Source: Candidatus Aenigmatarchaeota archaeon
GTDB lineage: Archaea; Aenigmatarchaeota; Aenigmatarchaeia; CG10238-14; SCSR01
DNA: 64,000 nt
Reading direction: 5' to 3'
NCBI GenBank assembly: GCA_038998335.1
Contig: JAVZHQ010000001.1
Location: 384,001-448,000 of the forward strand
Below are positions 7,118-31,958 of this stretch, one piece after another. A program made the position numbers and the translations under genes. Below the pieces are notes generated by a model. That model did not search any database, was not told where the DNA came from, and worked only from the letters and a program-made list of their open reading frames with translations. How positions within the stretch are numbered: the first letter of the stretch is position 1; each line of letters starts with the position of its first letter.

Positions 7118-7214
7118 GCGCCAGTAATCTAACCTGGTAGGATTAACTATACTAATACCAGCTTCCCAAATCTGGAATAAGCTGGGTGTCCGGGTTCAAA
7201 TCCCGGCTGGCGCA
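7118..7214 (+). tRNA. tRNA-Gly(CCC) with two short introns (~7144-7156 and 7169-7179)
   Basis: Acceptor GCGCCAG/CTGGCGC, T arm CCGGG-TTCAAAT-CCCGG, anticodon stem CCAGC/GCTGG; removing 13 + 11 nt gives a 73-nt tRNA. Confidence 0.88.
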
Positions 7215-21023: not shown

Positions 21024-21132
21024 GCTGGGATAGTTCAGCGGTTAGAACGCGGCGCTCATAAGCTTTATGAGCTTTGAAAAAATGATGAAAGATGAAACGC
21101 CGAAGTCCCGGGTTCAAATCCCGGTCCCAGCA
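21024..21132 (+). tRNA. tRNA-Met(CAT), elongator type, with 36-nt anticodon-loop intron
   Basis: Acceptor GCTGGGA/TCCCAGC, anticodon stem CGGCG/CGCCG, CTCATAA loop after removing 36 nt (21061-21096, or 21062-21097 by BHB geometry). Confidence 0.9.
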
Positions 21133-23646: not shown

Positions 23647-25193
<1,547 letters not shown>

Positions 25194-28273: not shown

Positions 28274-28409
28274 CTTTTTTAAAAAAAGGTTTCTTAACAA
28301 AAGTAAAACAAAAGCTTTAAATAGGATAAAGCTTTTAAATTATAAAAACTAATAAATTAGTTGCCGGTGTCGTTATGTCTGCTTAGCTTGAACATCGGCC
28401 TTTTTGTTT

Positions 28410-28467
28410 AGCTATGAGTTTGCCCTTCTAACTGATAAAAGATGAAGAAATGGGCACCTAACGAGCT
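28410..28467 (+). ncRNA. Box C/D sRNA 1 in 23S leader (D guide to U2552 equivalent)
   Basis: C ATGAGTT, D' CTGA, C' ATGAAGA, D ACGA; TGGGCACCT is antisense to 31499-31507. Confidence 0.8.
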
Positions 28468-28514
28468 TCCTTTGATGCGAATCCTTATTTTGATAATAAG
28501 GGTTTAAGAGTTGA

Positions 28515-28576
28515 GGTTGATGACTTGACTGACAGCGTCTGATAAAAGATGAAGAACGAACTGTCTTTATGAAACC
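28515..28576 (+). ncRNA. Box C/D sRNA 2 in 23S leader (guides to 2504 and 2600 equivalents)
   Basis: GGTT/AACC stem, C ATGACTT, D' CTGA, C' ATGAAGA, D ATGA; guides antisense to 31451-31459 and 31548-31557. Confidence 0.85.
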
Positions 28577-30618
28577 AGAAGATGAAACTACCATAGGATA
28601 AGCTGGTCAAGAGGTCCTGGCAACAGTAGCCCACTTGGTGGATGGCTCGGCTTGGTTAGCCGAAGAAGGCCGTGCCAAGCTGCGATAAGCCTGGGTTATC
28701 CGCATGGAGGAGCTGACCCCAGGATTGCCGAATGGGATTCCTAGCCCGTTAAGGGCTATTTCGGAAGAAAAGGGAACGCGCCGAAGTGAAGCATCTTAGT
28801 AGGCGCAGGAAAAGAAATCAAACGAGATTCGGTGAGTAGGGGCGACCGAAAGCCGAACAGGACAAACCGAACTTTCTTTCGAAGAGGAAGAAAGGATGTG
28901 GAGTTACAGGACTTGGGCCTTTCCTAGCTTGCTAACCTGAAGTGAGCTGGAAAGCTCCACCATAGAGGGTGATAGTCCCGTAGGGGAAGGCAAGAAGGAA
29001 AATGCCAAGTCTCCTGAGTACCATTCCTTGGATATGGAGTGGGAATTTGGGTGGCATTAACATCCAATCCTAAATACTAACCAAGTCCGATAGCGGACTA
29101 GTATCGTGAGAGAAAGCTGAAAAGTACCGCGAAAGCGGGGTGAAAAGAGCCTGAAACCAAGTTGGGCATAGTCAGCTAGGGCATGAAAGGTGCTACTCCG
29201 AAGGAAATTCTCGCAAGAGAAGAGTACGAGGAGTAGCTTACAGTGTCCTAGCATCCGTTCTGAAAAACGGGGCAGGGAGTTTGCTCGAGTAGTGAGGTTA
29301 AGGGGTTTAAACCTCGAAGCCAAAGCGAAAGCGACAAGCCCGTAGTCTCGCAAGAGACGTGGGGCGGGGTGTGAAAGCGCCTGAAATTACTCGAGCAAGA
29401 CCCGAAGCCGGTCGATCTAATCCTGGGCAGGATGAAGTTCCTCGAAAGAGGAATGGAGGTCCGAACCGGTGCTGAGACCCAATCGCTCGGTTGACCCAGG
29501 ATTAGGGGTGAAAAGCCAATCGAGACCGGTGATAGCTGGTTCCTCCCGAAATGAGCGTCAGCTCAGCCTGGTTGGAGGTAAGCAGTAGGGTAAAGAGACT
29601 GATTGGACGGTCAAGGTGCGAAAGCATCAGCCGTCCTGTCAAACTCTGAATCTACTGCTGCCTGAGAAGACCGGAGTGAGGGTACTGGGTTAAGCTCGGT
29701 ACCCAAAAGGGGAACAACCCAACCTGGGGTTAAGATCCCTAAATGCCGGCTAAACGAAGAAGGGAGTCCAAATCCTTAGACAGCGGGGCTGTAGGCTTAG
29801 AAGCAGCCATCAGTTAAAAAGTGCGTAACAGCTTACCCGCCGAGGGTTTGGGCCCTGAAAATGGAAGGGACTAAGCCGGCTGTCGATACCCCAGACCTGC
29901 GAAAGCAGGGGGTAGGGAGGCGTTCTGCATGGGTAGAAGCTTGTTCGTGAGAACAAGTGGACCGTGCAGAATTGAAGATCCTGCCATGAGTAGCAGCATA
30001 GCTGGGTGAAAATCCCAGCCGCCTGAACCCTCAGGGTTTGCCAGCAATGTTCGTCAGCTGGCAGTTAGTCGATCCTAAGGGCGCTCTTAACCGAAGCGCT
30101 CAAAAGGGAAATCGGTTAATATTCCGATACCATGGAGGTACGTGCGGCAACGCAAGCTAGCTTTCCGACGTTTCGGGATAGGCCGACGCAAGTTAACTGC
30201 CGAAGCCTGCAGAGTCTCGTAACGAGGAGAAGCAGGTGAAAGCAGGAATAGCTCCGCGTATGCGGAGTTCGGCCGATTCCTGGAACCCGTGAAAAGGGAA
30301 GCTAGAAGGATCCTCCATGATCGTACCAAGAACCGACACAGGTAGGGTCGCTGAGAAGGCGAAGGCGTGTTGGGAGAACCCAATCCAGGGAAATCGGCAA
30401 ATTGGCCCCGTATCTTCGGTAGAAGGGGTGCCTGTTCTCTCGAAAGGGAGAACAGGTCGCAGTGACAAGGGGGAAGCGACTGTTTAACAAAAACACAGGA
30501 GACTGCTAGTCCGAAAGGATTTGTACAGTCTCTGAGGTCTGCCCAGTGCCGGTGTGTGAAACCCGGTTCCAACCGGGAGAAGCCCCGGCAAACGGCGGCG
30601 GTAACTCTGACCGTCGTA

Positions 30619-30664
30619 ACTCAGGGCGGTCATCTGATTTGATGATACGCCGCCTGGGCGACAT
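30619..30664 (+). ncRNA. 46-nt BHB intron in 23S (E. coli 1927/1928) with D'/C' motif and cis guide
   Basis: GTCG-TA|A-CTCAGG...CCTGGG-CGAC-AT|A; CTGA-T-TTGATGA inside. Confidence 0.9.
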
Positions 30665-30792
30665 AAGTAGCGTAATCCCTTGCCGTTTAATTGACGGCCC
30701 GTTCAACGGCTTAACGACTTCCCCACTGTCCTGGGTTGGGACCCAGCGAAAATGCTGTTCTGGTGAATAGGCCAGAGACCTCCGGTGGGAAA

Positions 30793-30823
<31 letters not shown>

Positions 30824-30976
30824 GCGTTGCTGTAAGGTTGAAATTGCATAGAGTAGCTGGGACTCGCTATTAGGCGCAGGCTTCGGCCGAGGCTGAGAGG
30901 AAAGTGTAACACCAGCCCTTTTCAACCTTACGGCTTACCCGTAAGGGGACAGCGTCAGATGGGCAGTTCGGCTGGG

Positions 30977-31060
30977 AGTTTAGGAGCTAGAATGAAGAGT
31001 CCCTTAAGTTATGAAAAAATGATTAAGGGCATACGGTCTGAACAGCTCCTAAACCAGCAA
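30977..31060 (+). ncRNA. 84-nt BHB intron in the 23S P-loop (2252/2253) containing a complete box C/D sRNA
   Basis: GCTG-GG|A-GTTTAGGAGCT...AGCTCCTAAAC-CAGC-AA|G; splicing restores GGCTGGGGCGG. Confidence 0.93.
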
Positions 31061-31115
31061 GCGGTACGCCCTTGGTAAGAGATCAAGGGCGCCCAAAGCT
31101 CAGCTCATCCGGGTC

Positions 31116-31212
31116 ATGTCAGAAGTTGAAGCTATGATTACACTGCTCCAGAATGATTTAAAGATGAGTATGGAGGTAGCTTATGAGCTTTCATCAACTT
31201 CTGACACCCGAA
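31116..31212 (+). ncRNA. 97-nt BHB intron in 23S (about 2306/2307) containing a complete box C/D sRNA
   Basis: CGGG-TC|A-TGTCAGAAGTTGA...TCAACTTCTGACA-CCCG-AA|A; splicing restores CGGGTCAGAAATCC. Confidence 0.92.
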
Positions 31213-31384
31213 AGAAATCCGGAGTAGAGTGTAAGCGCAAAAGCTGGGTTGATTGGATCCCGCAAAGCGAGGGATCCAAGGGCGAAAGCCTGGGCTAGCG
31301 ATACATCGGTTCGCCTTAATGGCGGCCGGTGGTATCAGAAAAGCTACCTCGGGGATAATGGGCCCGTGGCCGGTGAAAGCCCAC

Positions 31385-31427
31385 AGCTCAGGGGTTTTCA
31401 TCCCACTCGATAGCGACGAGCGGGTAA
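31385..31427 (+). ncRNA. 43-nt BHB intron in 23S (about 2477/2478)
   Basis: GCCC-AC|A-GCTC...GAGC-GGGT-AA|A; splicing restores AGCCCACATTGACCC. Confidence 0.88.
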
Positions 31428-31526
31428 ATTGACCCGGCGCGTTGGTGCGTCGCTGTCGGCTCCCCCCCTCCTGGCCGTGCAGTAGCGGCCAAGGGTACAG
31501 GTGCCCACTGGTTAAAGGGGGACGTT

Positions 31527-31560
<34 letters not shown>

Positions 31561-31958
31561 GCTATCTACCGGAGGTGCTGGCTGTCTGACCGGAAGGATG
31601 GGTGAGTACGAAAGGAACACCCATCCGTGGCCTCTGGTCTACCGGTTGTTCATCGCACAGCCGGGCAGCTAAGCCATAGCGGATAAGTCCTGAAGGCATC
31701 TAAGGACGAAACCGCCCGGGAAAATAGGCAGCCAATTGCTCTGCTATTCCGCAAGGAACGGTAGAGCAACGAGGGCTCTCCTAGACGAGGAGGTTGATAG
31801 GAAGGGGGTGTACGCGCCAAGCTTTCGAGCGAGGCGTTCAGCCCGCCTTTCCTAATCGCCCGAGGTTGCCAGGACTTGATAAGCAGCTTATCCTATGGTA
31901 GTTTCAAAAGTTTTTTTCTAAAATAAAAAAGTTAAACTTTTTTTTCTTAATTTAATTT

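Follow-up and report, generated by a model that had tools for sequence, protein, structure and literature searches.

Can an intron in a ribosomal RNA gene guide the modification of the very helix that it interrupts? The question is raised by a 46-nt insertion in the 23S rRNA gene of a Candidatus Aenigmatarchaeota archaeon, which we analyzed within a 64,000-nt stretch of its genome (contig JAVZHQ010000001.1, positions 384,001 to 448,000; hereafter the window, with coordinates counted from its first nucleotide). The host genome comprises 1.0 Mb, a size typical of DPANN archaea, on 9 contigs and is 90% complete. Its rRNA operon lies in the window, with 16S rRNA at 23647-25193 and 23S rRNA at 28614-31875 (plus strand; Rfam LSU_rRNA_archaea, 2633.5 bits, model positions 1-2987). 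The insertion follows helix 69, the site of intersubunit bridge B2a and of a tRNA contact surface, and the hotspots of archaeal rRNA methylation include helices 68-71 (PMC4644070). Our analyses suggested that the insertion is an intron of the bulge-helix-bulge (BHB) type and that, judging from its sequence, it probably embeds a reduced box C/D guide for the methylation of C30611, the equivalent of E. coli C1920, in which the terminal C/D motif is replaced by a basal stem and the BHB motif.

The Putative Guide Module and Its Target

The putative guide, GGCGGUCA in RNA letters (GGCGGTCA in the DNA), lies at 30625-30632 of the plus strand and supplies positions N9 to N2, with G30629 as N5; N1, as read from the sequence, is the T at 30633. 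It is followed by a D'-like box, CUGA (30634-30637), a spacer UUUG (30638-30641) that would form the loop of a kink-loop (K-loop), and a C'-like box. The proposed target strand is UGACCGUC (TGACCGTC as DNA) in the 5' exon, at 30608-30615 of the plus strand. As the original prediction had described, the two can pair over 8 bp, seven of them Watson-Crick and one a G-U at N8, and within 16S and 23S rRNA this stretch is the best N2-N9 match to the guide. N5 faces C30611, eight bases upstream of the intron, which is therefore the predicted site of 2'-O-methylation. Alignment to E. coli K-12 rrlH placed C30611 at C1920 and A30618 at A1927, which bears out the earlier assignment of D'+5 to C1920. Helix 69 (E. 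coli 1906-1924), as placed by the same alignment and by the structure line of Rfam, occupies 30597-30615 of the plus strand, with GGCGG at 30597-30601 paired to CCGUC at 30611-30615. C1920 in this helix is a Cm site of the bacterial methyltransferase TlyA (Cm1920/Cm1409).

All strings quoted in the original prediction were found at the coordinates it gave, and two of its readings needed revision. It took UGAUGA at 30640-30645 as the C' box; these letters are present, but the register conserved in the intron family is AUGAU at 30642-30646, a shift of two nucleotides, and in that register the box reads AUGAUAC (30642-30648, with AUGA at 30642-30645 in the model alignment). It also pointed to a second antisense segment after C', CGCCGCC at 30648-30654 of the plus strand. 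This segment is indeed antisense to the exon sequence GGCGGCG at 30594-30600, but it is better read as one strand of the splicing-competent hairpin, in which it pairs with the intron's own GGCGG. We rejected a second guide here: there is no D box 12 nt further on, and even the best matches that the segment finds in rRNA are poor.

Could such a module be fortuitous? An ordinary BHB mini-intron might have a palindromic hairpin that happens to spell CUGA/UGAUGA and to resemble helix 69. UCAUC:GAUGA is a plain Watson-Crick stem; the intron stem GGCGG:CCGCC resembles GGCGG:CCGUC of helix 69, a likeness that by itself creates cross-complementarity; and the box pair alone is not unusual, since CTGA-N2-6-ATGA was found 10 times in the window against 8.6 expected. 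Against this, the box pair together with an 8-bp N2-N9 guide (at most one G-U) to 60 nt of either exon appeared in only 25 of 200,000 shuffled introns. Three further observations set out below, namely the match to a model built from unrelated loci, the conservation pattern of the family and the eight relatives whose full guide RNAs bear the same guide, also speak against coincidence, which we consider very improbable. The narrower view that CUGA and UGAUGA are mere Watson-Crick hairpin strands was likewise dropped as a sole explanation once 25 intron variants and the full guide RNAs of relatives had been compared.

Some other architectures were considered and set aside. An H/ACA-like pocket fits the arm topology, but it would leave 7-10 target nucleotides unpaired instead of 2, and only some of the variants contain an ACA box. 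A kink-turn (K-turn) formed by UACG at the hairpin's 3' bulge would lack tandem G.A pairs. Circularization of the intron creates no new boxes at the junction, as judged by eye from the intron ends.

Complete Guide RNAs in Related Genomes

We searched the 118 genomes of the order with the pattern GRCGGTCA-NN-TRA-N2-10-TGA, for which a reversed-pattern control gave 16 hits. The pattern matched 12 genomes with the short intron, in none of which it found a second locus, and 13 other genomes; in view of the control, some of the latter matches must be due to chance. Eight of the 13 read GACGGUCAN-CUGA (ACGACGGUCAN|CUGA), and every one of these is a complete box C/D small RNA (sRNA) in a genome that is intron-less at 1927. 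The matches that lack CUGA (L215, L216, L219, L225, and L226) were taken as chance, as were the three additions made by a looser guide pattern (G034, G059, and G002), which look like coding sequence and have no box C.

The sRNAs of the relatives share one layout. A box C (AUGAUGA, AUGAAGA and similar) is followed by a 12-nt D' spacer that ends in GACGGUCAN, then by CUGA and a loop of 3-7 nt, and the 3' part consists of AUGA(A/U)GA or GUGA(A/U)GA, a D spacer of 12-13 nt and box D. Their D' guide, to which the intron guide aligns, pairs with UGACCGUCGU over 10 bp and places position 5 on the same C as the intron guide does. The genomic settings differ: five of the eight sRNAs are stand-alone (G030, G031, G036, G106, and G108), one lies inside a tRNA intron (G026), and two lie inside a different 23S rRNA intron near E. 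coli 1096 (G052 and G054; loci L217 and L218), in genomes whose helix 69 site is intron-less. By eye, the D guide of the L217 and L218 sRNAs matches a AAUGGCUUAA sequence located some tens of nucleotides downstream of helix 69.

A sequence-only model (R1) was built from the eight sRNAs, with no introns included. On both strands of the 64 kb its best match was 30623-30645, with an E value of 0.028 whose calibration is rough. The match covers model positions 9-30, that is, the guide, D', the loop and the start of C'.

Conservation of the Intron Family

The intron family was found in 13 of the 118 genomes of the order, as 12 short forms and one 78-nt form, and in none of the 253 genomes that belong to the class but not to the order. 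An intron at the same site was also present in 34 metagenome loci, all of which belong to the family except L201, which matches it in part. A near-identical copy occurs in L095, a record titled Candidatus Aenigmatarchaeota archaeon, which was the only relevant one among at least 120 mostly bacterial chance matches of a loose contig pattern.

From the genomes and metagenome loci we assembled 25 distinct intron sequences, 23 of which could be parsed for boxes. The guide GGCGGUCA is identical in 24 of the 25, and the remaining variant, GACGGUCA, is a perfect complement of the target in which the G-U pair becomes A-U. The D' box reads NUGA in 22 of the parsed variants and UUAA in one, with U (10 variants) or C (9) as the commonest first base and A in the other 4. 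C' starts with RUGA in all 23; its position 5 is mostly U (20 variants), with A in two and G in one. The UGAUGA register of the original prediction is seen in 5 of the 25 variants and was not kept in the first five homologues. Changes at guide N1 are uncompensated (UCAC twice, UCAA once), and the spacer between the boxes varies freely at 3-6 nt. UCA, UGA and GGCGG are invariant while the loop and the basal stem vary. This pattern indicates a sequence-specific role, since a hairpin needs complementarity and not identity.

Both in the window and across the family, the D' and C' boxes appear able to form a K-loop with tandem G.A and U.U pairs. Position 1 of D' and position 6 of C' are paired in 13 of 23 variants (U-A 9, C-G 3, A-U 1), compared with about 7 expected from composition, a comparison between sequences that are not independent. 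The G117 intron has an extra stem-loop in exactly the gap that separates D' from C', so that a 3-nt bulge, UAU, precedes GA; this arrangement is that of a K-turn and not of a K-loop.

The Insertion as a BHB Intron

The original prediction placed a 23S rRNA intron at 1927 and at 30619-30664, and this location agrees with intron-less relatives, with the Rfam insert and with rrlH numbering. In the Rfam alignment, 48 nt stand against 2 model positions directly after helix 69, and 16 related genomes without the insert read GACCGTC(G/A)TA|AAGTAGCG uninterrupted (GTC(G/A)TA|AAGTA at the joint). Because A is repeated at both ends, the insert is either 30619-30664 of the plus strand, after E. coli A1927, or shifted by one.

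The BHB geometry was read from the sequence. The central helix pairs the exon strand GUCG (30613-30616) with the intron strand CGAC (30659-30662), both on the plus strand. It is flanked by a 5' bulge UAA (30617-30619) and a 3' bulge AUA (30663-30665). BHB cleavage is placed after the second bulge nucleotide, so that the predicted cuts UA|A and AU|A give splice sites at 30618|30619 and 30664|30665; cuts at these places yield exactly the mature sequence of the intron-less relatives. The basal stem (h'), with its 5' strand at 30620-30625 paired to 30653-30658 in the minimum free energy (MFE) fold, is 93% paired family-wide and occupies the place of a terminal C/D motif. The outer exon-exon helix (h) is weak, which corresponds to the relaxed HBh' form, and this relaxed form is described as accepted by broad-specificity endonucleases (PMC5829648).

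In 22 distinct flanked sequences, the splicing fold had 95.4% of its cells paired, compared with 28-48% in slid-partner controls, and in the BHB central helix 100% of the cells were paired, with one-sided A/G and C/U changes. Covariation support for the fold is thin, since only one pair shows a double change. Folded alone, the intron forms a hairpin of -19 kcal/mol with a z score of -3.08.

Assembled RNA and DNA contigs may reflect removal of the intron. Metatranscriptome contigs from two runs of one study had zero depth over 30632-59 and flanks in the thousands, a picture that intron-less relatives in the samples would share. Nine RNA contigs from one run join 30618 to 30665, as would contigs of intron-less relatives in the same samples. 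In two DNA runs the intron was covered at flank depth and the 30618-30665 joint was absent. The RNA contigs, in which a 46-nt RNA would not be visible and whose gaps in cover are no evidence by themselves, fit splicing at the predicted sites and lend it weak support.

Another genus of the family (G010; L022 and L156) has an unrelated 33-nt intron at 1927/1928 in which box-like motifs are absent. As this intron shares the site, 1927/1928 may be a recurrent insertion point.

Guides in Other Stable RNA Precursors

Half-modules of the same kind were seen in two more introns of the window. First, a tRNA-Met(CAU) at 21024-21132, found by Rfam and missed by ARAGORN, has an intron that reads GCUUUAUGAGCU|UUGA-AAAA-AUGAUGA. 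Its N2-N9 pair with 21054-61, and N5 faces C21057, the wobble C34; Cm34 of archaeal tRNA-Met is reported to be sRNA-guided (PMC2584109). Second, a 79-nt BHB intron in the 790-loop region of 16S rRNA (24382-24460; central helix CCCG 24376-79 with CGGG 24455-58) carries the half-module GGGAGUAUCUU|CUGA-UAAAAG-AUGAAGA, with N5 facing U24373 in the exon just upstream. This module is kept in the homologous introns of G097 and G031, and the G097 guide forms a perfect 8 bp. Terminal C/D boxes are absent from both introns. In each of them the guide target lies just upstream of the intron, by our reading 8 nt (16S rRNA) and 3 nt (tRNA-Met) from the 5' splice site, and in 16S rRNA it overlaps the exon strand of the BHB motif, as it does in the 23S rRNA intron.

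Complete guides are also housed in stable RNA precursors of this genome. A second 23S rRNA intron, 84 nt long (30977-31060), sits in a GGG run at about E. coli G2252/G2253, in the P-loop region. It is a complete dual-guide C/D sRNA, with a terminal stem, AUGAAGA, a 12-nt guide, AUGA, AAAA, AUGAUUA, a 12-nt guide and CUGA; each guide has a 10-bp match in 16S rRNA, with N5 on U24575 and U24866. A tRNA with a long variable arm and CGA in its anticodon region (G000:C1:504696-504833, minus strand; L214 197-334) contains a 57-nt intron that is likewise a complete C/D sRNA (AUGAGGA ... CUGA AUA AUGAUGA ... CUGA), whose best Rfam match, sR12 at 25 bits, is below the gathering score. In addition, the 23S leader holds two C/D-like modules (28408-28470 and 28515-28580) with a core, CUGAUAAAAGAUGAAGA, identical to that of the 16S rRNA intron, and in the downstream one of the two, the second guide can pair over 11 bp with 23S rRNA at 31547-31557. 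Strict scans for canonical sRNAs returned between 0 and 2 units in this genome, a low number that we attribute to the degenerate boxes of the lineage (AUGAAGA, AUGAGGA), and a relaxed scan returned two full sRNAs. The lineage keeps guides inside stable-RNA precursors, with a class of half-guides beside full ones.

A further intron-containing tRNA in the window (7118-7214, 97 nt) was also found by Rfam and missed by ARAGORN; no box-like motifs were seen in it.

The original claim that the intron carries a C/D-type guide for C1920 near its own insertion point thus gains support from the conservation of the family, the sRNAs of relatives, the model match, the recurrence of half-guides, the protein set and the lack of TlyA.

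Protein Machinery and Proposed Order of Events

The proteins that such a guide would need are encoded in the host genome. Fibrillarin and Nop5 lie in adjacent genes, an L7Ae homologue is present, and the splicing enzymes are represented by an EndA domain (95.1 bits) and RtcB (547 bits). TlyA was not found in the 90% complete assembly, where the best score was 25 bits against a cut-off of 185.8. The RtcB match (L264; G000:C1:120751-122073) reads through 2 TAA stops in a 494-codon frame, for which an intein, an intron or a split gene are among the possible causes.

On this basis we propose the following sequence of events, in which L7Ae binding, methylation, their order and the action in cis are inferred. 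L7Ae would bind D'/C' as a K-loop, open the top stem of the hairpin and free UCAU. The guide could then pair with the 3' strand of helix 69 in the flanking exon (30608-15), and Nop5-fibrillarin would 2'-O-methylate C30611 opposite guide position 5. Methylation would most likely come first, in cis, on the precursor. Afterwards the RNA would refold into the hairpin and the BHB motif, and EndA and RtcB would excise the intron. The guide-active and splice-competent states should be mutually exclusive, because the target overlaps the BHB exon bases 30613-15 and the guide is a strand of the hairpin. Methylation before splicing and in cis is the simplest order, as a short 8-bp duplex suits an intramolecular reaction. 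Engineered guides offer a parallel in vitro: a K-loop half-mer with L7Ae modified 8-11-bp substrates specifically, and a plain stem could replace the C/D motif on Nop5, while that article leaves open whether natural guides of this kind exist (PMC9670817).

The same overlap would also suit a role that has no need of fibrillarin, in which antisense pairing or L7Ae holds the 3' strand of helix 69 open, or times the folding of domain IV and splicing. The complementarity between guide and target is invariant, and the RNAalifold consensus of the flanked alignment is that very helix; the target overlaps the exon strand of the BHB motif, which provides a built-in switch; and chaperone roles have been proposed for sRNA-rRNA pairing (PMC4644070). 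A pure chaperone, however, would not need the register that puts N5 on C1920 and that is the same in the full sRNAs of relatives, and fibrillarin and Nop5 are encoded. We judge this alternative improbable.

An extension of the methylation-guide reading concerns the origin of the introns. On the target, the 12-nt D' spacer of the relatives' sRNAs would end precisely at the 5' splice site 30618|30619. It is conceivable, if doubtful, that some rRNA and tRNA introns of the order began as guide RNAs, became inserted at the 3' edge of the duplex that they form with their targets and, thus domesticated, now serve as a methylation checkpoint before splicing. Under such an origin, the rRNA would be methylated before it is spliced, since the guide would occupy the exon bases of the splice motif up to its release.

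Arguments Against an Active Guide

Several observations weigh against an active guide. First, the module is incomplete. No terminal box C (RUGAUGA) or box D (CUGA) was found at the expected distances or in the family alignment, and the positions where they would be expected read GUCGUAA and GCGA/ACAU. The intron is therefore not a canonical C/D sRNA, as a stem stands in place of these boxes. The guide duplex is only 8 bp, a G-U included, compared with guides of 10-12 nt given in a review (PMC7994747) and with 10 bp in the sRNAs of relatives; the distance from the basal stem to D' is about 10 nt instead of the usual 12; and positions 6-7 of C' are not GA in most variants. The specificity of a half-module is a real concern as well, because a fully single-site ribonucleoprotein (RNP) was active and not site-specific in the work of Hardin and Batey, as reported there (PMC1635284).

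Second, the competing fold is strong. In the free RNA the guide is hidden within the stable hairpin (-19 kcal/mol), as is the target within helix 69, and for the 91-nt region helix 69 plus the intron hairpin is the MFE structure at -32.8 kcal/mol, compared with -12.7 for the cis guide-target hairpin. The f5-family clade has C.C at D'1:C'6, and there the simple hairpin GGCGGUCAU:AUGAUCGCC pairs perfectly over 9 bp. The guide-target pairing shows 0 compensatory pairs; as both sides are invariant, no covariation test of it is possible.

Third, the distribution is less tidy than a simple exchange of mini-intron and full sRNA would suggest. In sixteen intron-less relatives with an assembled 23S rRNA site, these patterns found no guide for the C1920 site; the modification may be dispensable, or the patterns may miss guides. 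The complementary distribution of mini-intron and full sRNA is also soft, because the genomes are incomplete metagenome assemblies (56-97% complete).

Many of these points would suit a relic, that is, an intron whose ancestor was either a C/D sRNA or an intron containing such an sRNA, and which has ceased to guide while its conserved bases are kept for the hairpin that presents the BHB motif. The missing terminal boxes, the degenerate positions 6-7 of C', the perfect hairpin of the f5 clade, which uses the "guide" and the "C' box" as its strands, and the splicing fold, by far the most stable state, all fit such a decay. What a relic leaves unexplained is that UCA/UGA and GGCGG never covary across the 25 variants, in contrast to a freely changing loop and basal stem, and that the unpaired UGA of D' is kept in nearly all parsed variants despite its position in a hairpin loop. 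Moreover, the uncompensated changes at N1 are tolerated, as expected of guide N1, and the half-module recurs in two more introns of the window, each time in register with a sensible target. We therefore regard a relic as unlikely and retain the functional half-guide as the probable reading.

Relation to Known Systems

The intron is a member of the BHB intron class; it resembles a C/D guide and fails the test of terminal C and D boxes. Like archaeal box C/D sRNAs, it has its antisense element directly 5' of a D'-type CUGA, with the target facing the fifth nucleotide upstream, it has a D'-loop-C' segment capable of forming a K-loop, its guide and register are those of the relatives' sRNAs, and L7Ae, Nop5 and fibrillarin are encoded. 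Unlike them, it is without the terminal C/D motif and without a second guide with a D box, it offers 8 bp instead of 10-12, and its guide lies inside a BHB intron of its own target RNA, masked by intramolecular pairing. TlyA acts on the same nucleotide of helix 69, but it is a protein enzyme that works on its own, with no RNA guide.

In nature, the closest precedent is found in pre-tRNA-Trp, whose intron is described as a full C/D guide directing Cm34 and Um39 (Clouet d'Orval 2001; Bortolin 2003; Singh 2004, cited in PMC2584109 and PMC7994747). There, too, a BHB intron guides its own host RNA, the guide and splice folds compete, and the question of action in cis or in trans arises. As those sources present it, that intron is a complete dual guide of about 100 nt in a tRNA, whereas here a single-guide half-module of 46 nt lies in 23S rRNA. 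The nearest mechanistic precedent is the engineered half-mer. The half-mer and C/D-free guides of Wang, Yang and Ye (2022; PMC9670817) likewise combine one K-loop with one guide and have a stem where the C/D motif would be; as described there, they are synthetic and were used with Sulfolobus proteins at 70°C, whereas the intron is natural and conserved, with a predicted guide activity. The 16S rRNA BHB introns of Thermoproteales (PMC4496867) share the BHB motif, a conserved and functionally central rRNA site and a patchy occurrence among relatives. Those introns are described as carrying homing endonuclease genes or nothing, and the paper makes no mention of sRNA, methylation, fibrillarin or guides; the 23S rRNA intron at 1927, by contrast, is very small and carries a guide module. 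In the literature that we searched, we found neither C/D guides within rRNA introns nor natural guides with only a K-loop; the supplementary target tables of PMC4644070 and PMC6009581 could list the C1920-equivalent site of other archaea.

Implications

If the proposed function is correct, archaeal rRNA introns are not all selfish or empty, and some of them would guide the modification of the helix that they interrupt. The intron would represent a minimal guide that occurs naturally, made up of a single K-loop, a guide of 8 nt and a stem that substitutes for the C/D motif; should the integration origin also hold, it would rank as the first methylation guide from nature with a plain stem instead of one of its C/D motifs. 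It would further imply an order in which methylation precedes splicing, and it would offer a possible origin of introns by insertion of guide RNAs at their own targets. The same nucleotide, C1920, would then be targeted convergently, by the protein TlyA in bacteria and by an RNA guide here. Finally, mini-intron and full sRNA appear to stand in for each other within one order, a natural experiment on the extent to which a guide RNP can be reduced.

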